In this document: positions 22,602-51,701 of the stretch, piece after piece
Layout of the letters: the number at the start of each line of letters is the position of its first letter
Numbering within the stretch: the stretch's first letter is position 1
DNA from: a virus
Lineage: Duplodnaviria; Caudoviricetes
Length of the DNA: 58,425 nt
Reading direction: 5' to 3' (one strand)
IMG/VR virus record: IMGVR_UViG_3300030376_003371
Location: 1 to 58,425 of that record
Made by a program: the position numbers and the translations under genes
Notes under the pieces: model-generated
Database searches by the model: none
The model's input: only the letters and a program-made list of their open reading frames with translations
Told to the model about the DNA's origin: nothing

Positions 22602-22623
22602 TTTACTAATTTTTAAATGTTAA

Positions 22624-23760
22624 TTATTTTTTATTACTTCTAATTTTGAGTCCTCTACCCTCACTTGGGTTGATTGCTCTAATTGTCATACCATCTTTCT
22701 TAGCTACTTGCGGCGCATTCCTTGTAGACATATTAACATTTTTTATTTTTTTTGTTACATCTGTCGTTGCATCAGATTGACCTTGTTCATAAAAGAACTT
22801 AGCAAACCTTTCAGGATTTTGAGCAATAGCTAATGCTCTATGGTATCCTTGTGCGTCAGATACTAAGCCTGTCTTATCATCAAGAAACTTATTTATAAAG
22901 TTTGTTGAATCAGAATTCATACGCTTAATCTCAGACACATTCTTAGAAGGTAAAAAAGTAATCACTTTGTCTTCACCAACTTTGAAGTCAAAACCTTTGA
23001 ACTCCGGGTGGAAAACTTCCTCGGTCTTATCTAAGAACCAATCTCGTTTTCTTTTCGCCTCTTCTTCATAGGTCTGAGCATCTTGCACATATTTATTGTA
23101 AGCCTCTAGGTTTTCTTGTTGCTCTTGAGAAATGGATTTAACACTTGACTCAAGTGGTTCCTTGTACATCTCTTTTTGCTTCTCAAAAAACTTTTTAGCT
23201 TTACCAATCTCTTTTTTAAAAGCTACTTTCTTTTTCTTTATTACACTTTCTTCATCAATATCTGCATCATAACTAAAATCCTCCATCATATAATCTATGT
23301 CTTCAGAATCTAATGCATCTTCAGTTGCTGAGTAATATTCTCTTAAAAGTTGCTTTTCATCCATAGCATTAAAGTCTCTATTCAATTTTGAATAGTCTTC
23401 AAAACTACGTCCTGTTTTTTTTCTATACTCCAAATATGCGGCAACGTCTTCAGGTATTTCTACGTTTGATTCTTTTTTCTCAAACAAATCCCCTACTGAC
23501 GATACCTCTTTGTTGTATCTATTCTTAATAAATGAAAGAACATCTTCCTCATTTAACTCTGAGGATTGAGTTTCAATTTCTTCTTTAGGTGTTTCAGCCG
23601 GAGCTTCTACACTTTCTGTTTGTTGTGGTGTAGTCTCTTCTACTACATTCACATTTTCAGCTACTTCATTTTTCTGAGCAGCTTTGTCAAGAACTTCTTG
23701 TTCTTTCTCAGCCATAGATTTTTCATCTACAGACCCGAGGTCTTTTACTTTAATTTCCAT
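22624..23760 (-). CDS. Putative scaffolding protein
   Basis: Acidic helical protein between portal and capsid genes. Confidence 0.7.
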   Translation of the reverse strand: MEIKVKDLGSVDEKSMAEKEQEVLDKAAQKNEVAENVNVVEETTPQQTESVEAPAETPKEEIETQSSELNEEDVLSFIKNRYNKEVSSVGDLFEKKESNVEIPEDVAAYLEYRKKTGRSFEDYSKLNRDFNAMDEKQLLREYYSATEDALDSEDIDYMMEDFSYDADIDEESVIKKKKVAFKKEIGKAKKFFEKQKEMYKEPLESSVKSISQEQQENLEAYNKYVQDAQTYEEEAKRKRDWFLDKTEEVFHPEFKGFDFKVGEDKVITFLPSKNVSEIKRMNSDSTNFINKFLDDKTGLVSDAQGYHRALAIAQNPERFAKFFYEQGQSDATTDVTKKIKNVNMSTRNAPQVAKKDGMTIRAINPSEGRGLKIRSNKK

Positions 23761-23776
23761 TTGATTTAATTTTATA

Positions 23777-23784
23777 CAAAGTTA
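23777..23784 (-). promoter_or_regulatory. Bacteroidota -7 promoter element
   Basis: TAACTTTG upstream of the scaffold gene. Confidence 0.7.
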
Positions 23785-23811
23785 ATAAATATATTTCGTT
23801 CAAATTATTTA

Positions 23812-26247
23812 CTATCTCGGTTCAAATTCAGCTAGGTCAAACCCATCTAAACTATCCTCGTTTGATTCGAAATTTTGTGGTGGAAGATTATTCTTCCTTT
23901 GATTTATAAGCTTAGACTGTTCTGTGTTTTGCTGAGAGATTCTTTCTTTCTTTGCTTCCTCTCTTGCTCCTTCACGAAACGCTAAAGCATTTTCTGAAAC
24001 ATTTCTAAGTTGTTGGTTGTACGCAAATTCCTCTGCCATCAACTGACTCTTAAGCTGTGCTTCGTTTTGCATTTTTTCTATTTCAAAAGCAATCTCAGCT
24101 TGTTTTACTTGAATCTTAGTGTCTAACTCCATTTTAGACTTTTGTAAGTCTGCTTGAGATTTAGCCTGTACAAGTTGCATTTGTTGTTGCGCAGCCATTT
24201 GCTGTTTCTGCATCGCCATCTGCTGTTCTTTTTCCTGCTTTTGTTTTCTCTTTAATTTTAATAATTGATTAGCAAGTTTTAAATTTTTAAGCTCTCTAAT
24301 ATCAATAGCGTCTTCTAAATTAATATCACCTTTAGATAAAGCCATTTGTATATTCTGTTCTAGTTGAGCCTTTTGTTCTTCATCCGGTGCCACTTCAATA
24401 AATATTCCAAAGTCATATATATATAAATCAGATATATCATTTAATATACTTACATTATATTTTCCAATCTTATTTGTAAAGTCATCTTTGAAATCTGAGT
24501 ATTCTAAAATATCAGCTACTCTATAAGTTAAAGCTTCAGATAAAGTTCTAAATATATATAAGGCTCCATCAAGAATATGTCTAGTGGCTACGTTAGAATT
24601 TAAAGCAGCTAACTTTTGTAGACCAACTAAAGAGTTAGGGTCAGGACTTGAAGCGTCTCTAGCTTCATTTAATCCCGTCACCTGTCTTATCATATTTAAA
24701 TAATGATTATAGTTGGATATTAATGTTTGAGTTTTACTTGCTCCTGAATTAGTAGTAAGTTCTTTAATAGGGACTTTACCTTGGTTGTAGTCTCCTTCTT
24801 GAGTATAACTTCTACCAATAACAGAACCGGTTTGGAAATATAATCTTAATGCATCTTCAGGATTATAAGCACCACCTGTTCCAAGGTCTACTTCATTCAA
24901 TCCATCAGCATCAATGTATACACCATCCGGTACAGTCCTCGCTATTACTTGTTGTAACTTCAAGTGAGTTACTTGAATCAAGTCAGCAAAAGGAATCATT
25001 CTACGAGTTAAAGACTCAATAACACCTTTATACATTCTTGGTGCCACAGCTACATAGTTAGGCAAAGCATGTTGACTAGATGATTTTGGACGAACCATAT
25101 TGTGAGCTAATTCCCATTTTAATAAAATGTTTGTTCCCATCACCATAACTCCGTCATACCATACATCAATAGTCTTTTCAATTTTTTCAAACTGACCTTC
25201 CTCCATAACTTCAACAGGTGGATTAAATTGGTCATCTTTCTCAATAACCTTGCTTCCGCCTGTAGCCATTATCTTTTTCTTGTATACTATTTTTTTAGTT
25301 GTCTTGTAGTTGAAATATAAAAGAGTACAAGTGTCTCTGTAAAACATATCGTTCTCATAGTATTGAGCTACGTTATAGTAGTCATACCAATTCTGACTGT
25401 ACTTACTAATTTCTTCTAAGTCTTCGTTTGTTAGTGAAGGGTCAATCTTCATTAACTCAATAATAGGTAGTGTCTTTACTTCACCCCAATAAAAACAATC
25501 TTTAAAGTGAGGGTCTTCTGTGTAGCTATATACAATATTAGCAGGGTCAACATATGAAACCTTCACACCTGAACCTAATAAAAATTCATGCTTAGCTACT
25601 GAGATACCTAAAACGGTTAAATCATAGTCTAACCTTTTTCTTAAATCAATATAGTGATTCTCTTCAAAGATAGTATTGATAGCTTCTTCTTCAGCTATTT
25701 CAATTGCCGGTTTGTAATTGATTTGCATATATAAAGAAAGCTCCTCATCTGTTTGAGGTAATTGGTCAGGTGAAACTGTAAAAGCGTCAAACCCTGATTG
25801 CTGTTGCAAATCCATCAAGAAATCTTTAGAAACCATTTGAGCTTCTACCATGTCTTGATACTTACTTCTTTTTGATTGAGACATTGCATCTTGTGCGTAT
25901 GCCTTTACTTTGAACAATCTATCAGACATCCCGTTTACAACTATGTCAACAAACTTAGGAATGATAGGAACCGGAGTCCAATCTAAGTTTAAATAACTTA
26001 AATCACCATCTATGGCTAACTCATTCTTATATTTTGCAACTGACTGCTCCCCTCTAGCGTATAAACGCAATCGGTGAAACTGACGGAATTGGTCGTAGAA
26101 TCTACAACTTATTCCATCTCTTCGAAACCATTCATACTGAATTGCTTGACCTATTTGTAAGCCATATTCCTTGGTTTCCTTTTCTGCGTCAGATACAAAT
26201 TGACTCGGGAAAGCTGCAGATTTTATATTTACCTTTACATCTTTCAT
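23812..26247 (-). CDS. Portal protein
   Basis: 811 aa directly after the terminase; LNLDWTPVPIIPKFVDIVVNG motif; Gln-rich C-terminal barrel coiled coil. Confidence 0.85.
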   Translation of the reverse strand: MKDVKVNIKSAAFPSQFVSDAEKETKEYGLQIGQAIQYEWFRRDGISCRFYDQFRQFHRLRLYARGEQSVAKYKNELAIDGDLSYLNLDWTPVPIIPKFVDIVVNGMSDRLFKVKAYAQDAMSQSKRSKYQDMVEAQMVSKDFLMDLQQQSGFDAFTVSPDQLPQTDEELSLYMQINYKPAIEIAEEEAINTIFEENHYIDLRKRLDYDLTVLGISVAKHEFLLGSGVKVSYVDPANIVYSYTEDPHFKDCFYWGEVKTLPIIELMKIDPSLTNEDLEEISKYSQNWYDYYNVAQYYENDMFYRDTCTLLYFNYKTTKKIVYKKKIMATGGSKVIEKDDQFNPPVEVMEEGQFEKIEKTIDVWYDGVMVMGTNILLKWELAHNMVRPKSSSQHALPNYVAVAPRMYKGVIESLTRRMIPFADLIQVTHLKLQQVIARTVPDGVYIDADGLNEVDLGTGGAYNPEDALRLYFQTGSVIGRSYTQEGDYNQGKVPIKELTTNSGASKTQTLISNYNHYLNMIRQVTGLNEARDASSPDPNSLVGLQKLAALNSNVATRHILDGALYIFRTLSEALTYRVADILEYSDFKDDFTNKIGKYNVSILNDISDLYIYDFGIFIEVAPDEEQKAQLEQNIQMALSKGDINLEDAIDIRELKNLKLANQLLKLKRKQKQEKEQQMAMQKQQMAAQQQMQLVQAKSQADLQKSKMELDTKIQVKQAEIAFEIEKMQNEAQLKSQLMAEEFAYNQQLRNVSENALAFREGAREEAKKERISQQNTEQSKLINQRKNNLPPQNFESNEDSLDGFDLAEFEPR

Positions 26248-28466
26248 CTAATTATTTCGCTTTGTATGCCGGTATTAGTATACCTTGCAAAGTTAAGTTT
26301 TATTTTTGACTCTTTTCTTTCAGAAACATATAAGTGTTTTTGACAAGCCATTATAGCTAAACCTGAGCTAATACTAGCATCAAACTTAGTTCTGTTGTTA
26401 ATATCAAATTTTGCCCAATCAACTAAAGTTCTGTTAAAAGGCATTGTTCCCATTTCATCTGAGGGTCTAAATACTGATTCAAAATCCAACCCTATATATT
26501 TTTCTATGTACGATTCTATAGCAGAAGCATGTGCTTGTTTAACACCTTCACTTGTATTAGGTATACCTCCTAATTCTTTTTCTGTCTTAGACAATTTGTT
26601 GAATTGTTTGTCAGGTCTATTTAAACAATAGCGTCTATATCCTCTGTTTTTAAAATGATATAATAATCTTGGTTTATTGTTTTCCACTAATATAGGCATT
26701 CCATAAAATACACAAGCCATCAACACATCTTCAAAAAACATTTCAGCTGTCTGAGGTCTTGCAACATATTCTAAGAAAAACTCATTACTTGGTGCATCAT
26801 CTATATTAAATTTAGTTAAACCATGCAGAGCTCCATTTGAACCTCCTCCGCCTACGACTCCACTTATATCATATGAGTCACAACCAAATGCACCAAGGTG
26901 TTCATTTCCGGGATATTTTATTCCGTTCTTTTGGTGAGCATTGTTTTGAATGTTAGCTGATGGTAGCCAAGAAATATTAAACCTACCCTTACTGTCAGGA
27001 ATCCATATAACTTTAGAATCTTTTACTCCATTATCCCACACAAACTTTCCTCTTGTAATATGATGTTCTTTAATCATAGAGTCATTGTAATCTATTTGTT
27101 GGTAAAGCTTAGTTAAATTAAATATAGATTGTTTACTCTCATCTCTAAATGCATGAGACTCTGTACGAGGAAACTGTCTATAATATTCATTCAAAGCGTC
27201 AGCATCATTCTTCAATGAATCTACCTCAGCTTTCCAATAATCAATTGAACCCTGATAAATCATTTCCCCATCTATCCCCTCAACTTCGTGTGCAGGGTTT
27301 TCTAAAACAGGCATACCAAATCTATCTATAAAACCTTCCATGTTCCATTCCATAGGAACGAAAAGTGAATATAACCCACTCTTGGTTTGACCATTAGCGT
27401 TTCTGTTAGTTACATCTGAATCATAATATAGTTTTTTAAAATTATCTCCTCCTTTATCTAAAGCGTTGGAGGTTGACCCCATCATGCATTTACCAATAAT
27501 TTTGCTTCCTAGTCTCAAACAAGTTTTCGTTACTCGCCAATTATTTAAAATATTATTTGGCTTTACCCATTTTCCACTTTCGTCATGAACTAAAAGTAAT
27601 AACTTCTCTCCATCATAGGAGTTGTCATCTGTATTCTTCCAATCAATAGTGGTGTCTAAACCTTCCATATCATCCTCAAACATTTCATGCATATTCTTTT
27701 TAGTAATTTTGGAAGCAGGAATTCTAAAAGCTAGTTCAGTTTTCGGTTTATCCATACCATCTTGAATAGGTTTGAAAAAGAATGGAAGTCTGTTTGAGAT
27801 GGGAACTACTTTATCAGTAAACATTTTTTTAGCATCCGAACCGGTTTTAGATAGTATACCTACCCTTGCATCTTTAGCAAGAGTAGCTGTATTGATACAT
27901 TCAGAAGAACCCATAAAAGAAAAACCTGAACGTCTTATTTTTAAATATATTAAACCAAAGCACCTAGAGTCTGCCTTACATGCTTCCCAATAAATAAACA
28001 AAGCTCTGTTAGCTTCTCTGTAATCCGGATATCCAACATCAATTTTTGTCCATTGTAAATACATATAGTGAGAACCTGTAATATAATTTGGTACTCCTCT
28101 ATTCATAAACCAATACCCCTCTTCTCTTCGGTCAAATTCATTTTCTATATAATCAACGTATTGGTCTTTAAAAGAATTAGGCATGTCATTCCATTGAAAA
28201 ATAGATTTTATTTTTTCTAAATTTTTTGGAATGTTTCCTCGTTCCCAATATTGACTAAGCTTGTTATCACTTCTTTTATAAACTTCCTTGGGTTGTTTTG
28301 GTAATGCAATTTTTAAATTAGATATCTCTACTATCTTTCCAATTTGACCACTCTTAGATATAATAACTAAATCATATTTTTTGTTATAACCGTACAACCA
28401 ACTTCGACCTCTATTTTTATTAGAGATTACATTTTTAGGTATGTGGTTTTTTATTTCTTTAATCAT
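26244..28466 (-). CDS. terL: Terminase large subunit
   Basis: Walker A-like LKIRRSGFS, Walker B LLLLVHDESGK, coupling motif GSTSN, RNase H-like nuclease (FGCDSYD, LVENN, KFDASISSG). Confidence 0.92.
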   Translation of the reverse strand: MIKEIKNHIPKNVISNKNRGRSWLYGYNKKYDLVIISKSGQIGKIVEISNLKIALPKQPKEVYKRSDNKLSQYWERGNIPKNLEKIKSIFQWNDMPNSFKDQYVDYIENEFDRREEGYWFMNRGVPNYITGSHYMYLQWTKIDVGYPDYREANRALFIYWEACKADSRCFGLIYLKIRRSGFSFMGSSECINTATLAKDARVGILSKTGSDAKKMFTDKVVPISNRLPFFFKPIQDGMDKPKTELAFRIPASKITKKNMHEMFEDDMEGLDTTIDWKNTDDNSYDGEKLLLLVHDESGKWVKPNNILNNWRVTKTCLRLGSKIIGKCMMGSTSNALDKGGDNFKKLYYDSDVTNRNANGQTKSGLYSLFVPMEWNMEGFIDRFGMPVLENPAHEVEGIDGEMIYQGSIDYWKAEVDSLKNDADALNEYYRQFPRTESHAFRDESKQSIFNLTKLYQQIDYNDSMIKEHHITRGKFVWDNGVKDSKVIWIPDSKGRFNISWLPSANIQNNAHQKNGIKYPGNEHLGAFGCDSYDISGVVGGGGSNGALHGLTKFNIDDAPSNEFFLEYVARPQTAEMFFEDVLMACVFYGMPILVENNKPRLLYHFKNRGYRRYCLNRPDKQFNKLSKTEKELGGIPNTSEGVKQAHASAIESYIEKYIGLDFESVFRPSDEMGTMPFNRTLVDWAKFDINNRTKFDASISSGLAIMACQKHLYVSERKESKIKLNFARYTNTGIQSEIIR

Positions 28467-28735
28467 TTAGAACGTCTTTCAGCAAAGCCTTGCTTAGTAA
28501 CCGGTTTACTTTTACCCATTTCTAAAGCTTCTTTCTCTGCTTCTATTCTACTTAATATTTCAAAAGCATCCATGATGCACAATTTTTTTGTAGCTGCAGC
28601 GTTCTTAAGTCTATCAGCAGCTAAGTCATCATCTAAATCAGGTTTTATAATATCTTCTTTAGCAACCTTGACGAGCTGCTCAACAGCTCTATAACCTGCT
28701 TGAATTATTTTTAATTTAGTTTCTTGTAGATTCAT
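28463..28735 (-). CDS. Putative terminase small subunit
   Basis: Small helical protein overlapping the terL start; ATG at 28735 (the track start is TTG). Confidence 0.55.
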   Translation of the reverse strand: MNLQETKLKIIQAGYRAVEQLVKVAKEDIIKPDLDDDLAADRLKNAAATKKLCIMDAFEILSRIEAEKEALEMGKSKPVTKQGFAERRSK

Positions 28736-29291
28736 ATGCAATAATATTTTTAGACCTTATTCTATATAGTTTTTTTTGGTCAAAGCTGAACTCATATTCT
28801 GAGTCAGGCATAAACGTAACGATGTCGCCTTTTTTAATACCATGTCTTTCAATTGAAGGGCAAGTATACTCCATTGTTCCCATCAAAGGTTCGTGAGTAA
28901 AAGGTTTATATATATAAGTTTCTGTAGCCGGAAGAGGTGAGACAAAACAAAAAGGCTCAACTGCATACCATTCAGATATCTTTTTGTACATATAATACTG
29001 AGTATCGTCTATAAAAAACTTATTGTCTTTAAAAAAACTTTTACCGCTTTGCCTTCTTCCATGCATATCGTTGTAGTATTTAAAGACATTATGATGAACT
29101 AACAAGGTGTCTCCTTCTTCTATTGGTCCGGTATAATTAATAGGGGTACTTAATACAACAGCTTCTCTGTTTGAAAAAGAAGCAGACTCTTCAGAGGTAT
29201 CTAATATTATTTCTATACCTTCTATATTTTTTATATTGTTATATCTTCTATCATTAGCAGGTACAACAATAAATTGATTGGGTGATTGCAT
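28716..29291 (-). CDS. Protein with two tandem GroES-like domains
   Basis: AVVLSTP...IEEGDTLLVHH and GTMEY...IKKGDIVTF..SEYEFSFDQKKLYRIRSKNIIA both resemble the cpn10 core. Confidence 0.5.
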   Translation of the reverse strand: MQSPNQFIVVPANDRRYNNIKNIEGIEIILDTSEESASFSNREAVVLSTPINYTGPIEEGDTLLVHHNVFKYYNDMHGRRQSGKSFFKDNKFFIDDTQYYMYKKISEWYAVEPFCFVSPLPATETYIYKPFTHEPLMGTMEYTCPSIERHGIKKGDIVTFMPDSEYEFSFDQKKLYRIRSKNIIAYESTRN

Positions 29292-29296
29292 TTAAT

Positions 29297-29527
29297 TTAA
29301 AAATTTATATTGTACTCTAATGATATAGGCATTGTTGAGTTGAATTGTTTCCACAACAAAACTTCTTGTTCACTAGAATCTTCTATATAAATTTGATAAG
29401 CATTTTCTGTTGAGCTGTATTTAATTAAATGAATTGTATAATTTCCATTAAGAACCGTTTGCCCAACAAGGTAATGCATTCCTCCTGACTTATAATCAGG
29501 ACCTATTGAAATCTTTCTAATGTCCAT
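29297..29527 (-). CDS. Hypothetical protein
   Basis: First gene of the packaging operon, A-rich leader. Confidence 0.7.
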   Translation of the reverse strand: MDIRKISIGPDYKSGGMHYLVGQTVLNGNYTIHLIKYSSTENAYQIYIEDSSEQEVLLWKQFNSTMPISLEYNINF

Positions 29528-29548
29528 TTATTTTAATTTGATTTATAA

Positions 29549-29556
29549 CAAAGATA
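29549..29556 (-). promoter_or_regulatory. Bacteroidota -7 promoter element
   Basis: TATCTTTG directly after a terminator, at the head of the packaging operon. Confidence 0.7.
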
Positions 29557-29559
29557 ATT

Positions 29560-29588
29560 AAAAAAAAAATACCCCTTAAAGGGGTATT
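29560..29588 (-). terminator. Intrinsic terminator
   Basis: AATACCCC-TTTAA-GGGGTATT followed by a T run on the minus strand. Confidence 0.85.
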
Positions 29589-29671
29589 ATGCGAGGGCGG
29601 TGCCATACAGGATTAATCACGAAGACATCTCCACACAGGAACCATCACGAAGACGGTGCCATACAGGAACC
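29588..29671 (-). repeat. Three tandem imperfect 28-nt GC-rich repeats in a 3' UTR
   Basis: Minus strand: GGTTCCTGTATGGCACCGTCTTCGTGAT / GGTTCCTGTGTGGAGATGTCTTCGTGAT / TAATCCTGTATGGCACCGCCCTCGCATA. Confidence 0.9.
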
Positions 29672-29682
29672 ACCAATATATT

Positions 29683-30690
29683 TTAAAAGAAAGAACTACT
29701 TCTAGGGACATTAGTGGATTGCCCCGGTGTTACTATAACTTGACGTAGTATGCTTGAGTCAAGCGGACTCCTTGCATAACTTAAAGTCATTGGGTTTGAT
29801 GGCTGTCCAAATATATAAGGAATAGTGTGATTCGTTAATGTAAAATCAGGGTTTTCTATTCCAATAACCATTCTAAAAACTACCTTCATCATTGGAATTG
29901 CACCTACAAATTGCGGGTCTCTAGTATTCCACCCGAAAGTTGCTTGTACATTTTTAACCGATAATACCGGTGCAATAAATATATTTTGAGGATTATCCTC
30001 TATTACAAGTCCATTCGGAAAAGGAATCGATGTAATTTCTGTACTTGTTGTATTGTGAGGTGTATATCGGTTAGCTAAAAATTGAAGATTATTCATAGGA
30101 ACTTGTATCCTTGCTGTGTCGAAAAGTAATGGGTCTGAAAAATCTACTGCGCTACCATTTGCGGCTAACACCAAATCATTTTGTATGCTCCACTCAGTAA
30201 CAAGGGGATGTACTGTAAAATCAGCTGAAGAGCCATCAAGACTTCTAGCTACAATTTTGCCTCGACCCCAATTTGTGTTTCCAAACTTTGAGGTTGTATA
30301 AGTTCCGTTTAAATGTGGAGGGTGAGTCCAACCACCGTTTCTACTAGGTCCACTCATTTCAATATTCCTACCTTGTGGTCTGTATAATTGTAAAAAAAGT
30401 CTTGCGCTTGGATTATTCAATATCCAATCTTTATTGCTACCTAACAATCCATTAATTCCTATACGAGAAGAATTTCCATAAGTTATACTTCCACCTGCAC
30501 TTAACTTTAACTGATAGAGTTCGGGTACAGGGATTGTAAGTGATGTGGGTAAGTTTGAAACAGTATAATCTACTATACCATCAACAGTAATGTTCTTTGT
30601 TACATTTTGAGGTAAGCCACTTGTTTCAGAAATTAGAATCTTATCATCACCCTTTGGTGTTACTACACTATAGTTGGCTATTTTACCCAT
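29683..30690 (-). CDS. Putative fibre/virion accessory protein
   Basis: N-terminus (MGKIANYSVVTPKGDDKILISE...TKNITV) is shared with 37699-38166. Confidence 0.55.
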   Translation of the reverse strand: MGKIANYSVVTPKGDDKILISETSGLPQNVTKNITVDGIVDYTVSNLPTSLTIPVPELYQLKLSAGGSITYGNSSRIGINGLLGSNKDWILNNPSARLFLQLYRPQGRNIEMSGPSRNGGWTHPPHLNGTYTTSKFGNTNWGRGKIVARSLDGSSADFTVHPLVTEWSIQNDLVLAANGSAVDFSDPLLFDTARIQVPMNNLQFLANRYTPHNTTSTEITSIPFPNGLVIEDNPQNIFIAPVLSVKNVQATFGWNTRDPQFVGAIPMMKVVFRMVIGIENPDFTLTNHTIPYIFGQPSNPMTLSYARSPLDSSILRQVIVTPGQSTNVPRSSSFF

Positions 30691-30692
30691 AT

Positions 30693-30926
30693 TTATTTTT
30701 TAGTTACATCGCCTGTCTTTAAATTTATCATAGAATCCTTTCCGTATTTTTCAACTAGATGGTCTTCCATCTTAGAAAATTCTATTTGTAATTTATTGAC
30801 TTGACTTAATAATCCGTTCTTTTGAAGTTCAAGTTCACCTATAGCTAATTTAAATTTTGTTAATTGCTCATTAGCTTTTTGTAAGTCAGTTAACTCTTGT
30901 TCTGTTAATTTTAGTTCTGTACTCAT
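30693..30926 (-). CDS. Small coiled-coil protein (possible fibre chaperone)
   Basis: Heptad pattern; ends YGKDSMINLKTGDV. Confidence 0.6.
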   Translation of the reverse strand: MSTELKLTEQELTDLQKANEQLTKFKLAIGELELQKNGLLSQVNKLQIEFSKMEDHLVEKYGKDSMINLKTGDVTKK

Positions 30927-30949
30927 TGTATTAAATTTAATTATTTATA

Positions 30950-30957
30950 CAAAGATA
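30950..30957 (-). promoter_or_regulatory. Bacteroidota -7 promoter element
   Basis: TATCTTTG upstream of 30926. Confidence 0.7.
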
Positions 30958-31356
30958 CTATTTTTTATTTTTAATCTTTTCAAAAGACCTGCCGCCAAAA
31001 TAGGCTGAGATTACGGTAATTAAAGTAAGTTGCAAAAGGTCTGTCCACTTATCTTCTACTTGAAAGGTTATCATACCTGCGTCAATAAATATCATAATAA
31101 TAGTTGACACCACTAAAAAAACAAGTATGATTGGTCTTACATTTCGAGTAAGCCAAGATGCTGAGTTATCAGACACCCATCTTTCAGTAATATTTTTTTC
31201 CATGTCTGCTTCATGCTTCATAAACAACTCAGTCATTTCTTTTTCAAAAGCATCCTTTTCTTCTTTGGTTCTTACAAATTTATCTACTATACCTGCTAAA
31301 CCATCTGCTACTCCGGTGGCTGCTCCACCAAAAATTTTTTCTAATATTTTTTTCAT
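30958..31356 (-). CDS. Holin (GTA 3TM-holin-like)
   Basis: SWLTRNVRPIILVFL...AYFGGRSFEK motifs, hydrophobic helices, next to the endolysin. Confidence 0.8.
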   Translation of the reverse strand: MKKILEKIFGGAATGVADGLAGIVDKFVRTKEEKDAFEKEMTELFMKHEADMEKNITERWVSDNSASWLTRNVRPIILVFLVVSTIIMIFIDAGMITFQVEDKWTDLLQLTLITVISAYFGGRSFEKIKNKK

Positions 31357-31766
31357 AATGTTGGGTATTGTTCTTTGACATTAAAACTAGGACAAGCTTT
31401 CGGTGAAAATTCATTATGACCATGAACCGTAGCATTAGGAAACATTTTTTTTAATGTTTGTAATAAAAGCAATAAACTTTCTTTTTGCTTTTCAGTTCTA
31501 GTATCCTTTGGAGTTTTGCCATCTTTTTCTACTCCTCCAATATAACAAACTCCTATAGATGATTTGTTCATGTTCTTTACATGAGCTCCTACTTCATCTA
31601 TCATTCTCCCTGATTCTATTTTACCATCTATTAAAACTACATAATGATATCCGCATCCTCGCCATCCTCTAGCTTTATGCCATCTATCAATTACCTCTAC
31701 ATTAACAGAGTCATCGCCCTCTCTTGTGGCAGAACAATGAAGTATTATTTTATCTATATCTCTCAT
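31353..31766 (-). CDS. Endolysin, N-acetylmuramoyl-L-alanine amidase (T7 lysozyme-like)
   Basis: IILHCSAT, GYHY, GAHV, SIGVCYIGG, HGHNEF..KACPSF zinc amidase motifs. Confidence 0.95.
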   Translation of the reverse strand: MRDIDKIILHCSATREGDDSVNVEVIDRWHKARGWRGCGYHYVVLIDGKIESGRMIDEVGAHVKNMNKSSIGVCYIGGVEKDGKTPKDTRTEKQKESLLLLLQTLKKMFPNATVHGHNEFSPKACPSFNVKEQYPTL

Positions 31767-31888
31767 CTACCTTGTCCTCTATATTTTTGTTTATAACCAT
31801 TCTGACTTTTGGAAGCATTCTTTGAATGCACTCCGGGTCTTTTCTTTTTACTTTGTTTTATATATATGGGAATATGAATCTTAGCCAT
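31763..31888 (-). CDS. Small basic protein (41 aa), not in the ORF track
   Basis: MAKIHIPIYIKQSKKKRPGVHSKNASKSQNGYKQKYRGQGR; TAATG and ATGA overlaps with both neighbours. Confidence 0.75.
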   Translation of the reverse strand: MAKIHIPIYIKQSKKKRPGVHSKNASKSQNGYKQKYRGQGR

Positions 31889-32250
31889 TACTGATTGAGT
31901 GTATCAATAACCTTTTGAAGTTCCTCAATAGTTATAGTAGGTTCAAACATAATGTTGCCTTCCCAATAACCTAAAGGTTTATTTGGTTGAGATTTTTTAG
32001 TTACAGCAATGATTGGAATTTTAGAAAATCTTTCTTGTAATTGTTTTGATTGACTTTCTAAGTATGCGTATTGAACATTACACCCATTTAGCTTTTCTAA
32101 TTTAATAGAATTCTTTTTATTCCAAGAAGCATTTATTTGTAGTACGTTGATATCGTAATCTTCAGAAGAGGATGGGGTTGCAGGAAAAGGAGTTGGCGCA
32201 ACTAAAAATGCTGCGGCAATAATTAACAAGAAAGGTAATAAAGTTTTCAT
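31888..32250 (-). CDS. Exported thioredoxin-fold-like protein lacking CxxC
   Basis: Signal-peptide-like N-terminus; VLQINASWNKKN where WCxxC would be; KIPII cis-Pro-like segment; C-terminal EELQKVID helix. Confidence 0.5.
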   Translation of the reverse strand: MKTLLPFLLIIAAAFLVAPTPFPATPSSSEDYDINVLQINASWNKKNSIKLEKLNGCNVQYAYLESQSKQLQERFSKIPIIAVTKKSQPNKPLGYWEGNIMFEPTITIEELQKVIDTLNQ

Positions 32251-32546
32251 CTTTTCTTATTTTCATACAATCTAGTCTCAAGAATTTTTAAGGTTTCTTT
32301 TATTTCTTTTACATCTTCTTTCATTGCGTCCACATCTTGTTGTGTAAGCATAATGGTTTTTCTAACTACTTCATCTTTGTATTGATATTCTTGTTGAGAA
32401 ATAACCGGTTCCGGTCTTTCCATAGCTAAAGCAATATCTGCTTTTAAACTAAAATATACACTTAAAATACTAATCAATACAAACCCTAAACCTGCGGCAT
32501 CTTTAACCGTCAATCTTAACTGTGTATCTTTGTTTAACTCGTTCAT
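32247..32546 (-). CDS. Single-TM protein with a C-terminal coiled coil
   Basis: AAGLGFVLISILSVYFSL followed by a heptad repeat. Confidence 0.7.
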   Translation of the reverse strand: MNELNKDTQLRLTVKDAAGLGFVLISILSVYFSLKADIALAMERPEPVISQQEYQYKDEVVRKTIMLTQQDVDAMKEDVKEIKETLKILETRLYENKKR

Positions 32547-32625
32547 TATCGTTTATAGATTTTTTCTTTACTTCATATTTAAATTCGATATCTAACAAAT
32601 AAGAATTTGATTGTGTGAATTCCAT
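32503..32625 (-). CDS. Small hypothetical protein (40 aa), probably leaderless
   Basis: MEFTQSNSYLLDIEFKYEV...; TAACTTTG (32630-32637) lies 4 nt before the ATG. Confidence 0.45.
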   Translation of the reverse strand: MEFTQSNSYLLDIEFKYEVKKKSINDNERVKQRYTVKIDG

Positions 32626-32669
32626 TCAACAAAGTTAAGTAAAATAAAATTATTTATTTATTTAAAAAT

Positions 32670-33623
32670 CTAAGGAGTACAGTTAGTAAAATTAGGTTTC
32701 GGTAAGGTCCAAGATGATGCACCGTCACTAAAATCAACACAATTGGTTACATTGTTTACTGCCCAACCACTTAAGTCTTGATTGAACGCAGTCGCATCTT
32801 CAAACATTTCCCTCATATTAGTTGCGCTACTCACATCCCAACCACTTATGTCTTGATTAAAAACAGGGTTCTTTTCAAACATAGATTGCATATTATTCGC
32901 ATTACCTACATCCCAAGAACTTATATCTTGATTGAATGTCATACTACTACCCCTGAACATACTATCTAGCCTGTTAGCAGAACTCACATCCCAACCTGAG
33001 ATATCTACATTAAAAGAGTTGGCACCAAAAAACATCTGATGAAACTCAAGTCCATTTGAAACATCCCAACCACTTATGTCTGCATCAAACAGAATAGCTC
33101 CATTAAACATAGTTGCAAAATCATCTACATTGCTTACATCCCAACTACTTAAGTCTTGGTCGAAAGCCTGACAATTACTAAACATTGCAGCCATATCATC
33201 TACATTGCTTACATCCCAAGAACTTATGTCTGAATTAAAAACCAAACATCCGTTAAACATTCCATTCATTCTAATAGCACTACTTGTATCCCATGAACTT
33301 AAATCGGGGTCAAAGCTTGTACAGAATCCAAACATTCCATTCATCTGCGTCATGCTACTCACATCCCAAGCTGAAAGGTCTCCGTTGAAATTAAACCTTC
33401 CATTAAAAGCAAGAGTGGCAGTAGTCACTTGACTAACATCCCAATCTTGAATTTTACCATAAGGGAATAGGTCGAAATTTCCGTTAACGTCTTGCGCTAA
33501 TATATCGTTTATTGCTGTTTGAAAAGTTGCATCTGTTAAGGGCACAGGAGGATTAGGACTAGGTTGTCCTGATTTGTTTTGTAAAAAACCTATGCCGGAT
33601 GCTATGCCAATTCCTGTTGGCAT
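32670..33623 (-). CDS. Putative head-spike fibre with DUF285/BspA-like 25-aa repeats
   Basis: About ten WDVS..M..MF....FNxDxS repeats; GIGIASGIGF N-terminal peptide; follows the spike-base gene. Confidence 0.8.
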   Translation of the reverse strand: MPTGIGIASGIGFLQNKSGQPSPNPPVPLTDATFQTAINDILAQDVNGNFDLFPYGKIQDWDVSQVTTATLAFNGRFNFNGDLSAWDVSSMTQMNGMFGFCTSFDPDLSSWDTSSAIRMNGMFNGCLVFNSDISSWDVSNVDDMAAMFSNCQAFDQDLSSWDVSNVDDFATMFNGAILFDADISGWDVSNGLEFHQMFFGANSFNVDISGWDVSSANRLDSMFRGSSMTFNQDISSWDVGNANNMQSMFEKNPVFNQDISGWDVSSATNMREMFEDATAFNQDLSGWAVNNVTNCVDFSDGASSWTLPKPNFTNCTP

Positions 33624-33624
33624 A

Positions 33625-34104
33625 TTACCATAGTGCTATTATATCCGATGCAGTTGTACCGGTATTAAAAACCTGAATACAATTTACAGGAATGAATGAG
33701 CCGCCACTAACTCCAACAAATGTTACATCGTCACCACCTGCTGTTAGTACTCTCAAGTCACCTGCTGTTCCTACATATAATACAGCACCATTGTTGTCTC
33801 CACCATATATTTGGTAAGTATCATTAAGTCCAAAAATCTGAACATTTAATAAAAGTTCTTCTTTTCCTACTCCTGTAATGATAGCTGTTTTACCATTACC
33901 TGCTGTGGTATTCTGTATAACCATACCTTTAGTAAGACCTATCTGTCTAAGGTCAGTAACATTTTGGTCTTTTATACCCGGTGGGACAGCTGATATTCCT
34001 GAAATTGTACCGCTACCATCCTTTACCATTATTTGAGGTATAGGACCTGAGTCACTTGGTACAACCGGATAAGCTCTGCTTGTATTTAACTTTTGATATG
34101 CCAT
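33625..34104 (-). CDS. Head-spike base protein (RcGTA rcc01079/GhsA-like)
   Basis: VVPSD...LYVGTAGDLRV...GDDVTF.GV.GGSFIPV...V..TGTTASDIIALW. Confidence 0.7.
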   Translation of the reverse strand: MAYQKLNTSRAYPVVPSDSGPIPQIMVKDGSGTISGISAVPPGIKDQNVTDLRQIGLTKGMVIQNTTAGNGKTAIITGVGKEELLLNVQIFGLNDTYQIYGGDNNGAVLYVGTAGDLRVLTAGGDDVTFVGVSGGSFIPVNCIQVFNTGTTASDIIALW

Positions 34105-34105
34105 A

Positions 34106-34702
34106 TTATACTACTTCTTGTAAAAGGATTGATGCTTCTACTTCTTCTCCTGTGTTTCCGAATCCTGAACTCGCAACTGCTGTAACCTGAATTGCACTTC
34201 CTGAAGGAATGTCCAAGTTTAATGTAGTTGCATCTTCAAAGAATCCCGGTGCTACACCTGAGCTTCCGTCCCATTCTGTTACGAATGCACCTACTTGAGT
34301 CCAACTTGCAGCGTCAGTCATATTAGTTCCTAACTCAGCTTTATACACATTGAATGTTATTGTTGAACTTCCTCTTGCAGTTTGATAATCTAAAGTAGAA
34401 CCCCATTGAGCTCCAAATCCTTTTATCTTTGCTTCGAAAGGTACAACTAAAAATGGGAAGTGGTCTCCTGCGGTATTTTGTTCTACACCCCAATCTATAC
34501 TACTTCCTCCTAAAATATCTGCACCTCCACCTGAGGCACCGAAGTTTACATATGTACCATTTGCCATAACTACTGCCGGAGTTTGGAAGTCGTCAGGAAA
34601 AGTATACACATCTCTTTTTGCATTTAGAGAAGCTGAACCTAAGTTTGCTGTTGGGACTGAGGGAGCTACTCCATGAAATTTTGTTCCGTTTGGTATTGCC
34701 AT
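34106..34702 (-). CDS. Putative virion decoration protein, paralogous N-terminus family A
   Basis: MAIPNGTKFHGVAPSVPTANLGSASLN followed by a beta-rich domain. Confidence 0.6.
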   Translation of the reverse strand: MAIPNGTKFHGVAPSVPTANLGSASLNAKRDVYTFPDDFQTPAVVMANGTYVNFGASGGGADILGGSSIDWGVEQNTAGDHFPFLVVPFEAKIKGFGAQWGSTLDYQTARGSSTITFNVYKAELGTNMTDAASWTQVGAFVTEWDGSSGVAPGFFEDATTLNLDIPSGSAIQVTAVASSGFGNTGEEVEASILLQEVV

Positions 34703-34720
34703 TTTCTTAAAATTATAAAA

Positions 34721-34894
34721 TTATTTATTTCTGTTATAAGGGAAAATCCTATTTAGAGAATCTCTCCTAGCACCACATCCACAATCGCTATTGGTAGCGG
34801 CAGCGACTTTATCTACTACCCTTTTGATTCCGGTGGCTTTTGTAAACTTCTCCACCGTATCTCCAAATCCCCTAGACATTGTTCTTGGTTTCAT
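34721..34894 (-). CDS. Small basic protein with a CGC motif (57 aa), not in the ORF track
   Basis: MKPRTMSRGFGDTVEKFTKATGIK...DCGCGARRDSLNRIFPY; TATCTTTG at 34899-34906 lies 4 nt upstream. Confidence 0.75.
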   Translation of the reverse strand: MKPRTMSRGFGDTVEKFTKATGIKRVVDKVAAATNSDCGCGARRDSLNRIFPYNRNK

Positions 34895-34917
34895 TCAACA
34901 AAGATAAACAATTTATT

Positions 34918-35016
34918 TTATTGATTTTTATCCTCTTCTGTTTTAACCCCAAAGTCTGTTGTAGGGTCTACAGTAGGAACCGTATAAGGTTTTAAAGTTT
35001 TATCTACTTGTGGCAT
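34918..35016 (-). CDS. Small hypothetical protein (32 aa)
   Basis: MPQVDKTLKPYTVPTVDPTTDFGVKTEEDKNQ, starts 4 nt after the upstream stop. Confidence 0.45.
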   Translation of the reverse strand: MPQVDKTLKPYTVPTVDPTTDFGVKTEEDKNQ

Positions 35017-35020
35017 TTGC

Positions 35021-36013
35021 TTATTGTTTAATCATTAATATTCCTGCTGCATTTAAAGGAGCTGCACCTGTACCATCTGTTTGATACATTTGTCCTGCTG
35101 TTAACCCTGCTGTACCTGCTGCTGCATCATCTGCATGTGCAGGAAGACTATTTGTAAAGGTTATACCTCCTGCTGTGGTGATTGGCATATCCGCAGTATT
35201 TTTTATAAAGTGAGCTTCAGTTGTATTACCGCCCACTACAAATCCATCTGCATCATGATAAATACCTGCGTATTGATTTATTGTACCTGTATAAGTTGCT
35301 TCAAGGTCAGCATTAAGAAATATCTGACGGAAGCTTTCTACTACTGAAACATTATTATCTATATCCCATTCATAGTAATGACCATATAAATAATTGATAG
35401 CTAAGTTATCTGTTAGTAGTTGTATTTTGTTTTTGTTGGCTACCCAAAAATTAGAACCGGCTGCCGGTGGCACTCCTGTTCCTGCATCTGAAATCATATC
35501 GTTGCTTAAGCCATAGAAATTTACAGGAGGATACAAGTTTCCATCATCAGCTACTCTGATTCGTGGAGTACATGCATCTCCTAATATAAAGAAAGCATTG
35601 GATGCTCCTCTAAATGAAAGTCTGTTTTGTTGACTTGCGAGTACAGTTGCTGTTTCTGACTCAGGTGTACGAATATCCCAATTGTTAAACATCTGATATC
35701 CATATCCTCCAATTCCAACTGAACCTTTTGTGTTAATTGAATTTATCCAATTAAACATTCCACCTGTGTCTACTCCATCATAATCAAACTCTTGTAAGAA
35801 AGTAATCTTAGTGTTATCATTATTAATAGGAGGAAGACCCGGTAGGGTATCATATGTTTCAGGATAGTTAATGGAAAGCTTTGTAAATGAAGTAGAAATC
35901 TCTCCCATATCGGCAGCTATCACATTGCTGTTTAAAAGCCTAGACTTTTTAAGATTAGTACTTACATTAGGTCCTACGAAATGACCCTTAAATCCCTTGG
36001 GTATCCTTGCCAT
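35021..36013 (-). CDS. Putative virion decoration/fibre protein, family A
   Basis: Start moved to ATG 36013 (MARIPKGFKGHFVGPNVSTNLKKSRLLN); C-terminus ADDAAAGTAGLTAGQMYQT. Confidence 0.65.
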   Translation of the reverse strand: MARIPKGFKGHFVGPNVSTNLKKSRLLNSNVIAADMGEISTSFTKLSINYPETYDTLPGLPPINNDNTKITFLQEFDYDGVDTGGMFNWINSINTKGSVGIGGYGYQMFNNWDIRTPESETATVLASQQNRLSFRGASNAFFILGDACTPRIRVADDGNLYPPVNFYGLSNDMISDAGTGVPPAAGSNFWVANKNKIQLLTDNLAINYLYGHYYEWDIDNNVSVVESFRQIFLNADLEATYTGTINQYAGIYHDADGFVVGGNTTEAHFIKNTADMPITTAGGITFTNSLPAHADDAAAGTAGLTAGQMYQTDGTGAAPLNAAGILMIKQ

Positions 36014-36017
36014 AGTT

Positions 36018-36158
36018 TTATTTTTTACACATACATTGAGCAACAGGACATTCGTTTACATCAATAATTAATTTTGATATTAACCAATTCCATTTGCAAC
36101 AAAGTTTGCACCAAGTCTTTTGAATCCAAAGACCTAGCTTCACTAATAATTTACCCAT
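36018..36158 (-). CDS. Cys/Trp-rich amphipathic peptide (46 aa), not in the ORF track
   Basis: MGKLLVKLGLWIQKTWCKLCCKWNWLISKLLIDVNECPVAQCMCKK; TAATG overlap upstream. Confidence 0.7.
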   Translation of the reverse strand: MGKLLVKLGLWIQKTWCKLCCKWNWLISKLIIDVNECPVAQCMCKK

Positions 36159-36370
36159 TACTTTTTGATTAAAGAACTTAAATGACCTTTAACGCTTGAA
36201 GGATAATGCTTGTCCTCTTTCATCGAATGATTACCTGAGTATGCATGTCCTGTCATTTTTTTAGCCATTCCTTTACTTTCATCTCTTCTGTCTTTTAATG
36301 ACTGCTTGTGAGCACCTTTGTGCTTACTACCTAAAGACTCATCTAGTCTGTCGTTATAACCTTGTTTCAT
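36158..36370 (-). CDS. Small basic protein
   Basis: MKQGYNDRLDESLG...; tightly packed in the operon. Confidence 0.7.
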   Translation of the reverse strand: MKQGYNDRLDESLGSKHKGAHKQSLKDRRDESKGMAKKMTGHAYSGNHSMKEDKHYPSSVKGHLSSLIKK

Positions 36371-36381
36371 AATATTGATTT

Positions 36382-36636
36382 TTATTTTTTAAATATTCTA
36401 TCTGTGATACGATTAACTCTGTCTGTTAATCTTTTTACTTTTCTCTTTTTACCTTTGTCCATTGCGTTATCAATCTTCCCTATAGTCTTTAAAACTCTTG
36501 CGCCTTTTTTACCAAGCTGTGCTTGGTTTTGTTTTTTAAGTTCTCTGTTATCTTTTCTTCTTTGCTTACGAGTTCTTGGGTCGCTTAACTCATCAATGTC
36601 TCTATTCTTGAAAGGCATGGAATAATCTTTACTCAT
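36382..36636 (-). CDS. Small basic protein
   Basis: Lys/Arg-rich, 84 aa. Confidence 0.65.
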   Translation of the reverse strand: MSKDYSMPFKNRDIDELSDPRTRKQRRKDNRELKKQNQAQLGKKGARVLKTIGKIDNAMDKGKKRKVKRLTDRVNRITDRIFKK

Positions 36637-36638
36637 AT

Positions 36639-36836
36639 CTATTTCTTTTTAGTGCTGCAGCCAAAGTTCTTAGCAAAGTTTGCCATTTTAACTACACTTG
36701 GTTTATATTTCTTTTTTTGCTTCATTACTGTGGAAGCAGCCGCACAAACTGATTTACCCGGCATATTCTTTTTTGCCCAAGCAGTAAACTTACCTTCGTT
36801 TGATTCTTTTATATCTATGAATCCTTTCTTTGCCAT
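36639..36836 (-). CDS. Small basic protein
   Basis: IKESNEGKFTAWAK...KMANFAKNF. Confidence 0.7.
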   Translation of the reverse strand: MAKKGFIDIKESNEGKFTAWAKKNMPGKSVCAAASTVMKQKKKYKPSVVKMANFAKNFGCSTKKK

Positions 36837-36838
36837 AA

Positions 36839-37375
36839 TTAATTTCCTTGTTGTATTGGTGGGTTATCATTAAATACTCTTCTTAAAATGACAACGTTCT
36901 CGTATCCTGCATTATCAGTTATAGTTCCTGTTGGGTCTATTGTAACTGACGACAACTTTATTGCATCTCCTCCTTGAACATTTGTAATTTTAGCCGAATC
37001 TAATAACACTCCCGTTGTTGCTCCTGTTACGACAACGTAATTGTTATTGGTAGTAACTTGAGCATAGTAATTATTACCAAATATTTCCACATCTCCCTCT
37101 CCAATCAAATCTCCATTCGCATCTCTACTCCAAGTAAAAGTTATACCTGTGTCATTATAAAGTTCCTCTACGAACCAAGGACCCGGATTTGTTGACGAAT
37201 AGTATCCAATGTATGTTTGAACTGCTCCACTCGGTGCGGATGATAATACCGTCTGAGTTATATCAGCCATTGTTACTGATTCTACATTAGAGTTTAACAA
37301 TTGTGATTTTCTATTCGTAGTATCTACATCTGCAGATACGGTATGTATTCTTTGGTCACTTGGAATTATTGACAT
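36839..37375 (-). CDS. Putative virion decoration protein, family A
   Basis: MSIIPSDQRIHTVSADVDTTNRKSQLLN; preceded by TATATTTG at 37396-37403. Confidence 0.6.
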   Translation of the reverse strand: MSIIPSDQRIHTVSADVDTTNRKSQLLNSNVESVTMADITQTVLSSAPSGAVQTYIGYYSSTNPGPWFVEELYNDTGITFTWSRDANGDLIGEGDVEIFGNNYYAQVTTNNNYVVVTGATTGVLLDSAKITNVQGGDAIKLSSVTIDPTGTITDNAGYENVVILRRVFNDNPPIQQGN

Positions 37376-37403
37376 AATTAATCTTTTTATTTATACAAAT
37401 ATA

Positions 37404-37694
37404 CTAATATTTTCCTTGTCTATTTTTTGGAGAAGACTTCGTGCTTCCTCCTTTACCTGCCCATAGTTTCTTGCAGGACCAATATCTTGCAGTTAACTTT
37501 GATTTAGCAGTTCCACATTTATGTCTTGCTCTAAAAGATTTTCGAGCTGCCGCACTATAGTTATGTCCATAACCTTTAGCACCAAAGTGAATTAGTTTTT
37601 CCTTGCCATTCTCACAAGCCTTAACCATTCTCTTCTTCCCTGCTCTATCAGATGCAACTACTCTGTTGCATTTCATTTTACTTTTATCTGCCAT
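37404..37694 (-). CDS. Small basic protein
   Basis: KLIHFGAKGY...ARKSFRARHKC...KLTARYWSCKKLW. Confidence 0.75.
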   Translation of the reverse strand: MADKSKMKCNRVVASDRAGKKRMVKACENGKEKLIHFGAKGYGHNYSAAARKSFRARHKCGTAKSKLTARYWSCKKLWAGKGGSTKSSPKNRQGKY

Positions 37695-37698
37695 AATT

Positions 37699-38166
37699 CT
37701 ATTGGTAAACTCTTATTTCTATAGGAGCTCCTTCTAATAAATCATCACCTAAAGCTGTTGTGTCATCTTGAGTTGTAACTACGACTTGACTAGGTGAAGC
37801 AACTTTAGCTTTTGGAGGTAGACCATCTGAAACAGGACTGCCATAGTTAAGCCATATCTGAACCTTTAGTGCTTGGGAAAATGCAGCATTAGCTGATGTC
37901 AATGTATACGTTCCGGGTGATGTTCTTCCCCATTTAAATAGAGGGTCTAACTCATTGTTGAGTACTACTGCTGTTGGGTCACCACCACCTTGCTGAGTAA
38001 TAAGTGCTGAATATGTTTTGTAGGCTCCTATACCTAATGCATTCCCCACACCACTTATCTCAATGTTTTTAGTAGCATCATTATCTGACTTGTCAGTTAT
38101 TATTATTAAATCGTCTGCTTCCGGAGTTACGATTGGATACGAACCTGTATTGCTTATCTTTCCCAT
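37699..38166 (-). CDS. Putative fibre/virion accessory protein, family B N-terminus
   Basis: MGKISNTGSYPIVTPEADDLIIITD...TKNIEI; C-terminal YKTYSALITQ..G.PTAVVLNN...IEIRVY domain. Confidence 0.6.
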   Translation of the reverse strand: MGKISNTGSYPIVTPEADDLIIITDKSDNDATKNIEISGVGNALGIGAYKTYSALITQQGGGDPTAVVLNNELDPLFKWGRTSPGTYTLTSANAAFSQALKVQIWLNYGSPVSDGLPPKAKVASPSQVVVTTQDDTTALGDDLLEGAPIEIRVYQ

Positions 38167-42473: not shown

Positions 42474-42477
42474 ATAT

Positions 42478-51690: not shown

Positions 51691-51701
51691 AAACCACTAC
51701 A

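Follow-up and report, generated by a model that had tools for sequence, protein, structure and literature searches.

In tail-fibre chaperone cassettes, such as those of lambda and Mu (Tfa) and T4 (gp38), the C-terminal domain of a fibre is accompanied by a cognate chaperone gene lying directly downstream. The pRNA of phi29 is a phage RNA of about 100-170 nt around a three-way junction; in phi29-like phages a dedicated promoter at the genome end drives it, and it forms a ring on the connector by intermolecular loop pairing, and works with an oligomeric phage protein assembly. Among repeat-built RNAs, ToxI arrays consist of short RNA repeats in tandem directly before a Rho-independent terminator, the repeat RNA and its protein form a threefold, triangular complex, and phage-borne copies of such arrays exist (PMC5086642); the orphan STAXI motif (RF01728) has units usually repeated threefold and UUCG-type loops (Weinberg et al. 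2010, PMC2864571). Here we describe, in the 58,425-nt window that makes up IMG/VR virus record IMGVR_UViG_3300030376_003371, a three-armed RNA element behind the gene of a 335-aa receptor-binding-protein-like protein, which shares traits with each of these systems and lacks the defining features of STAXI, repeat-RNA antitoxins and phi29 pRNA.

The element occupies 29589-29682 on the minus strand, where three 28-nt units lie between the stop codon of the 335-aa gene and an intrinsic terminator. The three units together form one pseudo-threefold three-way junction of three arms of about 9 pairs and three 5-nt linkers, so that an arm strand (9), a linker (5), a second arm strand (9) and a loop (5) add up to the period of 28. 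The arm that closes the junction, P1, is made by the first half-unit (29674-29666) pairing with the last (29604-29596). In 5' to 3' order the parts are:

29683-30690, minus strand: receptor-binding-protein-like (tail-fibre-like) gene, 335 aa, with an N-terminal anchor of ~45 aa and a beta-rich C-terminal part of ~290 aa
29675-29682, minus strand: A/U-rich single-stranded spacer AAUAUAUU between the stop codon and P1
29666-29674, minus strand: 5' strand of P1, pairing with 29596-29604; 8 of 9 positions paired, long-range covariation in relatives
29661-29665, minus strand: junction linker J1, UGUAU, matching the relatives' conserved linkers AAUUA, AGUUA and UGUAA
29638-29660, minus strand: arm P2, strands 29652-29660 and 29638-29646 around a UUCGU loop (29647-29651); 8 of 9 paired, with covariation
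29633-29637, minus strand: junction linker J2, UGUGU
29610-29632, minus strand: arm P3, strands 29624-29632 and 29610-29618 around a UUCGU loop (29619-29623); 6 of 9 paired, with covariation
29605-29609, minus strand: junction linker J3, UGUAU
29596-29604, minus strand: 3' strand of P1, from the pair table and covariation
29589-29595, minus strand: 3' tail CUCGCAU, an unlooped third copy of the loop motif YUNGN, kept in all clades
29558-29588, minus strand: intrinsic terminator, hairpin 29568-29588 followed by T10, where homology to phages with other cassettes restarts

The three mismatches of P3 lie in mid-arm, and the A/U-rich spacer between stop and P1 measures 5-29 nt in relatives. The YUNGN motif thus appears three times, in the two pentaloops and in the 3' tail, and comparison with relatives shows that the arms drift in sequence while linkers, YUNGN loops and tail are kept. 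A first-pass annotation, drawn from the letters of the window, had already noticed three tandem 28-nt units, two conserved boxes separated by a variable 4-mer, a GC content above that of the flanks and a strong terminator, and each of these observations holds. Tandem Repeats Finder reports 29598-29672 (period 28, 2.7 copies, score 94) and a repeat search finds three copies at spacings of 28 and 28. The pattern TCCTGTRTGG-N4-GYCYTCGYR, with CACC, AGAT and CACC as the 4-mers, has exactly three matches in the entire 58,425-bp record, all on the minus strand and none on the plus, and a reversed control has none. GC reaches 0.525 at 29580-29659 against mostly 0.20-0.34 in neighbouring 80-nt bins (0.425 in the overlapping bin 29620-29699), and the terminator hairpin, with 9 pairs at 29588-29568 and then T10, tops the list of terminator-like signals for 22000-38000. 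The boxes themselves resolve into parts of the fold: TCCTGTRTGG is an arm end, a linker and the start of the next arm, and GYCYTCGYR is an arm end and a loop.

Set beside the described systems, the element seems closest in behaviour to the chaperone cassettes, by a likeness of position and inheritance only: it too lies directly downstream of a receptor-binding gene, is specific to one C-terminal type and is swapped along with it. Unlike those cassettes, it holds no conserved open reading frame (ORF), its 28-nt period is not a multiple of 3, and its stems covary as RNA. Like phi29 pRNA it is phage-encoded and built around a three-way junction, but it is an element of the 3' untranslated region (3' UTR) in a different type of phage, with a large terminase and crAss-like virion genes; both loops are UUCGU, leaving no complementary loop pairs, and there is no Rfam match. 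The units of STAXI are self-contained pseudoknots found in Enterobacteriales near DNA-handling genes, whereas the units here interlock in one three-way junction and give no covariance-model match to STAXI. The position of tandem repeats directly before a Rho-independent terminator is that of the arrays of type III loci, yet no ToxN/AbiQ-type endoribonuclease gene lies downstream of the terminator, and the units are not near-identical monomers: they base-pair among themselves, and a covarying P1 closes the array. At gathering thresholds Rfam 15 gives no match in the whole window, STAXI, pRNA, ToxI, riboswitches and ribozymes included; at E <= 10 the stretch 29480-29760 yields only terminator-driven noise of at most 17.9 bits, and nine related loci have no match at E <= 0.1. 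A CRISPR-like mini-array is ruled out because the units abut without spacers and interlock, and a mobile REP/MITE-like repeat because there is a single copy per phage at a constant place.

Read on the sense strand, the element is a conserved fold of the RNA type. For the 136-nt RNA the folding energy is -38.3 kcal/mol (z = -3.2), a value that none of 200 shuffles matches. When 27 distinct sequences are aligned with MAFFT, blind to structure, 88.6% of cells pair in the three-way junction, its covariation score is 0.606, and both sides change in 17 of 20 pairs, whereas controls with the structure slid along the alignment stay at or below 55% paired and 0.184 covariation, and 0 of 500 shuffles attain the observed score. 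Across 49 distinct sequences (alignment A3, fitted to a covariance model) 91.0% of cells are paired, double changes occur in 18 of 20 pairs, and the score is 0.570. Three extra pairs per arm (83% paired, score 0.558) join the conserved C and G beside each linker.

Any tandem palindromic repeat can adopt alternative folds, either one hairpin per unit or a nested fold, and both score below the junction. Self-contained hairpins are 68.4% paired, with a score of 0.337, and fare worse than the junction in 48 of the 49 sequences; the inner helices of the nested fold are 81% paired against 89-90% for the junction, which is the better of the two in 24 of the 49 sequences, ties in 22 and is worse in 3. 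Minimum-energy folds of single sequences are ambiguous where the units are identical (the nested fold then wins), so that the choice of model rests on sequences with unlike units. Pairs of the G.U type outnumber A.C by 50 to 2 in the 20 core pairs and by 66 to 17 in the extensions, an excess which indicates that the structure is selected on the mRNA-sense strand; taken with the covariation pattern, this strand bias argues that what is selected is an RNA fold, as opposed to a recombination site in double-stranded DNA. Long-range pairing between the element and the coding region of its gene stayed at chance level in all 12 loci tested.

The same signature is visible over a short evolutionary distance. 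Within the subclade of the window, a 95%-identical environmental contig (the X18 variant) has 70 differences over 1,354 bases. At least 16 substitutions fall in the 84-nt repeat and at least 13 in the arms, including at least four double compensatory pairs, and the number of paired positions moves from 22 of 27 in the window to 23 of 27 in the variant. In P1 a C-G pair becomes U-A and a U.C mismatch becomes U-A, P2 has two double compensatory changes, and the outer pair of P3 turns from G-C to C-G. The first-pass annotation had offered a co-transcribed RNA partner, a binding array or a recombination hotspot as readings. The RNA reading is well supported by stem covariation, by the G.U excess over A.C on the sense strand and by the position between stop and terminator; the notion of an array of separate sites gives way to one three-way junction; and of the hotspot there remains that the element marks the right edge of a swapped cassette, while covariation and strand bias favour an RNA fold.

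Databases contain 25 relatives of the 335-aa protein, and not one of them is functionally named. Homologues (29-94% identity) are encoded at 44 loci in IMG/VR, and a three-unit element and T-run follow the stop in all 44, as 27 distinct sequences. A covariance model built from relatives (R1; 96 positions, 20 pairs) matches the window at one place (50.4 bits, E 3.8e-9) and has exactly one match in each of five whole phage records. It also matches 43 of 72 metagenome loci. Alignment extends beyond the N-terminal part of the protein in 47 of the 72, and in the four of these that R1 does not match the sequence stops at or just past the protein match; the 25 loci that share the N-terminus only (L198-L222) have no R1 match and are uninformative, the gene ends lying mostly beyond the 1.2 kb taken. 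The first-pass annotation had named homologous genes without any downstream repeat as a refuting result, and the opposite was found: such an element is present behind every homologue with downstream DNA (44 of 44 viral, 43 of 43 metagenome).

At least 49 distinct sequences of the element are known, about 80-95 nt long. A search of viral contigs for three copies of CAATTAG returned 96 stretches, of which 80 loci were taken and 13 proved to be the element, all in one phage group. One relative (L185, 2086-2152) carries a two-unit RNA behind an intact homologue; this RNA consists of P1 and a single hairpin, across which its two CAGUUAG linkers face each other. In another locus (L324, 393-1202) a main-clade gene has a premature stop or frameshift near its C-terminus, and the element behind it is intact (97.5 bits). 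No homologue of the protein occurs among 185,579 bacterial species representatives, R1 has no match in 154 (3 + 151) Bacteroidia-class genomes, a weak negative from a partial sample under strict filters, and the phage isolate database gave no DNA or protein match to the gene. A search of full-text literature found no description of the element in the entries and abstracts covered. We conclude that this is a real, strongly supported and uncatalogued family of structured RNA with a threefold architecture built from repeats.

The protein encoded directly upstream resembles receptor-binding proteins. Its anchor, residues 1 to ~45, is common to proteins of 177-648 aa at the same genomic position, a trait of tail fibre and receptor-binding proteins that supports the fibre-type N-terminus noted at first pass; this anchor motif is shared by the alternative modules found there. 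The C-terminal domain, described at first pass as unrecognised, remains so: no Pfam, PHROG, PADLOC or PDB-sequence match was found for the protein, and a PDB profile search returned 0 matches. An AlphaFold2 model (pLDDT 70, pTM 0.71) is beta-rich with residues 1-50 disordered. Foldseek of the model against the PDB found nothing at E <= 0.001, a wide structural search with VIA-align gave generic beta-sandwiches (best Z 4.4), BFVD gave one weak row (E 1.6e-4, TM 0.29), and the ESM Atlas held no usable match. By analogy with fibre proteins, the 335-aa protein is probably a homo-oligomer.

A scan with only the N-terminal 50 residues (A4) gave 62 viral loci, of which 23 new ones went to R1 and 22 to an ORF script. 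Seven of the new loci have the element: three are in the main clade, and four are in another, divergent clade, where the protein has 307-310 aa and belongs to the family over its full length (hhalign probability 100%, E 6.7e-67). In 14 positional orthologues the shared N-terminal 36-53 residues are joined to one of six other C-terminal types, and none of the 14 has the element; 12 of them also share the downstream gene, and several keep the terminator. Of the other new loci, L343 and L346 have different surroundings, and L333 is cut off by the end of its contig. The types without the element are:

L316: 282 aa, spacer and terminator after the gene
L352-357 and L360: 177-183 aa, one small hairpin and the terminator
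L358/359: 577 aa, gene abuts the next gene
L361/362: 182 aa, gene abuts the next gene
MW202828: deposited phage, 648 aa, fibre-type repeats
NC_055853: deposited phage, 398 aa

By hhalign, L316 is common to the family over residues 1-53 only and L352 over residues 1-44 only. As a separate observation, the small hairpin of the 177-183-aa cassette (GTAGGT...ACCTAC; L352 at 2034-2110, L353-357, L360) stands between the stop and the same terminator, and may be an unrelated 3' element of that cassette.

The DNA shows where such cassettes begin and end. Between the window and L005 identity is 80% down to 30265, inside the gene, then nearly nothing, and 89% again from exactly 29588. Comparing L336, which has the element, with L352, which has none, homology stops at codon 36 and restarts five bases past the element (L336 4603); between L350 and L355 or L316 it restarts one to two bases past it (L350 5521/5522). 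A break inside the gene and a restart at the 3' end of the element make the RNA part of a swappable cassette of C-terminal domain and RNA, and because terminator and downstream operon exist without the element, it is needed for neither. Judged by these comparisons, the element is tied to the C-terminal domain and not to the fibre-type N-terminus, and across the loci compared it shows strict co-occurrence and co-inheritance with this C-terminal domain family.

We tentatively propose, putting the chance somewhat short of even, that the element is a multivalent protein-binding 3'-UTR RNA functionally coupled to the upstream 335-aa protein. The RNA would form the untranslated 3' end of the gene's mRNA, ending at the intrinsic terminator, and would fold into the three-way junction so as to display short single-stranded motifs three times. 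That the arms drift while linkers, loops and tail are conserved and presented threefold suggests a platform recognised by a protein; because the RNA is kept only with this C-terminal domain, the most economical partner would be the product of the gene just upstream. Its role could be feedback control of protein synthesis or help with assembly of the protein. A more specific and rather improbable version makes the element an RNA counterpart of a tail-fibre assembly chaperone, a threefold scaffold that would capture three fresh C-terminal domains through its linker and loop sites and template their trimerisation; this would explain the swapping of the RNA together with the domain, and such an RNA might even stay bound, perhaps as a structural cofactor of the receptor-binding protein of the virion.

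Several points weigh against the proposed coupling or limit what the counts behind it can carry. The sequences are related by descent, so the cell counts are not independent events, and the 49-sequence alignment leans towards the structure modelled. A single cassette passed on by common descent, with no functional tie, could also produce the strict co-occurrence. No known RNA-binding domain was found in the protein, and its pI ranges across homologues from 5.5 to 9.6. The distance from stop to P1, at 5-29 nt, speaks against a tight co-translational mechanism; the same spacing, with a 28-nt period that gives no conserved extension, rules out a stimulator of stop-codon read-through or frameshifting. 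The two units of L185 mean that a strict threefold requirement is not universal. Finally, no RNA run is listed for the locus, and none of the small contig pieces from two presumed RNA runs spans the whole element.

Two further explanations accept an RNA and dispense with the protein partner. We think it unlikely, while giving it serious weight, that the element is a passive 3'-end stabiliser against exonucleases, or a processing site of the RNase III or RNase Y/E type at which a stable 3' fragment would be set free, with no specific protein tie. Its place in the 3' UTR directly before the terminator, the A/U-rich single-stranded spacer 5' of P1 and GC-rich arms that would be stable in an AT-rich phage all suit this explanation, and the RNase III sites at gene ends of phage T7 offer a precedent for processing. 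However, about 9 pairs per arm is little for RNase III; the terminator hairpin already protects the 3' end, the terminator is present and the element absent at positional orthologues with a different C-terminus, and conservation of linkers, loops and tail while the arms drift points to specific recognition. An anti-defence decoy, for instance a pseudo-ToxI-like mimic of a type III repeat-RNA antitoxin or a mimic of another host repeat RNA, its link to the fibre cassette being only historical, is improbable. Short tandem repeats followed by a Rho-independent terminator are what type III loci have, and phage TE evaded ToxIN by expanding a ToxI-like repeat, ToxIN complexes being triangular 3:3 (PMC5086642). 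Against a decoy, the units pair mutually and a covarying long-range P1 closes the array, indicating one fold and not processed monomers; no ToxN/AbiQ-like or other defence protein was found adjoining the element; the lack of an R1 match in the Bacteroidia-class genomes sampled is a further, weak negative; and lasting linkage to one C-terminal domain through cassette swaps would not be expected.

The remaining explanations turn on where the element sits. Its position is precisely the right-hand edge of the variable cassette, about 1 kb upstream of the terminase gene, which would suit a DNA-level element, either a folded recombination site at the cassette edge or a packaging or replication signal; integron attC sites, which follow the cassette ORF and conserve structure while their sequence varies, also count in favour of this explanation. 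The attC core sites, RYYYAAC/GTTRRRY, come with a cognate tyrosine recombinase, whereas here no GTTRRRY core is seen by eye at either end and no integrase domain or recombinase was found in the window in a scan of ORFs of at least 50 aa. Moreover, the G.U count of 50 against 2 for A.C puts the structure on the mRNA-sense strand, and on the left the cassette begins within a conserved coding region, as ordinary homologous exchange predicts. Between the window and L005 the packaging genes are 89% identical and the elements completely different, which shows the element varying independently of the terminase module. The conserved UUCG-type loops likewise favour RNA, as was argued for STAXI (PMC2864571). 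We therefore hold a DNA-level role to be distinctly improbable. Least probable of all, and very much so, is a cis-regulator of terminator read-through, by antitermination or in the manner of a riboswitch, that would dose the chaperonin/packaging operon. The element does stand immediately upstream of a strong terminator separating two co-oriented gene blocks, and GAGG in the main-clade 5' strand of P1 could, by eye, pair with CCUC of the terminator. Yet the same terminator and downstream operon occur in relatives that have no such element, P1 of L029 has become GAAG/CUUC while its terminator still reads CCUC (no covariation with the terminator), a Bacteroidetes-type -7 box (TAnnTTTG) follows the terminator in the loci read, and there is no Rfam riboswitch or put-type match.

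The phage that carries the element is a linear virus whose 58,425-bp record is complete or nearly so (99%). It encodes a 740-aa large terminase, similar to those of Flavobacterium, Cellulophaga, Tenacibaculum and Maribacter phages (87 records), a relative of P22-type portals, and virion genes with crAss-type "muzzle" domains. A giant ORF of at least 2,538 aa at 3-7616 on the minus strand, which extends past the start of the window, adjoins genes with Crassvirus muzzle-protein domains (11008-11862; 12810-18314, minus strand), and with these muzzle-domain genes beside the giant ORF the phage looks distantly crAss-like. The 335-aa gene is the last of a minus-strand lysis block, followed by the repeats and then the terminator; past the terminator come in order a 76-aa gene, a GroES-like gene, a 92-aa gene, the terminase and the portal. 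The flanking genes are:

31353-31766, minus strand: amidase, lysis block upstream of the 335-aa gene
30958-31356, minus strand: holin, lysis block upstream of the 335-aa gene
29297-29527, minus strand: next gene, 76 aa, MDIRKISIGPDYK..., first gene of a conserved chaperonin/packaging block

The 76-aa gene lies outside the cassette and served as positional landmark. The 76-aa, 191-aa and 92-aa downstream proteins have no Pfam or PADLOC match, and the 191-aa protein matches a PHROG annotated as co-chaperonin GroES. This protein (28716-29291, minus strand), just downstream of the terminator of the element, is the second GroES-like protein of the phage, which also has GroEL-type and Cpn10 chaperonin genes at 40630-42228 and 40242-40499. 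Other repeats were seen in the window. A perfect 9-nt inverted repeat, 29706-29714 / 29517-29525, flanks element and terminator and spans the start codon of the next gene; only 7 of 200 shuffles reach it in the window, but 25 other loci show no conservation of it. Upstream of the chaperonin genes lie four copies of an 11-nt tandem repeat, TAAAGTCAACA, at 42429-42474, and just upstream of a primase/helicase gene lie 3.7 copies of another, ACACAAACTCA, at 51654-51694, with two DnaA-HTH proteins (49129-49428, 56477-56884) near the latter; both sets are candidate iterons or operators. A coding tandem repeat of 75 nt (2.7 copies, 33061-33261) lies within a DUF285-domain gene at 32670-33623.

Receptor-binding proteins set the host range of phages, and their C-terminal modules are the most often exchanged parts of phage genomes. 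Here, in a group of uncultured marine relatives of Flavobacteriia phages, a structured RNA travels with such a module in the exchange. Whatever its function, it is a clean, strongly covarying new RNA family of unusual architecture, small enough for structural and biochemical study. If the RNA does regulate, assemble or accompany the protein, it would represent a new way to build or control host-recognition organelles, and host-range cassettes would not be describable by their protein parts alone.

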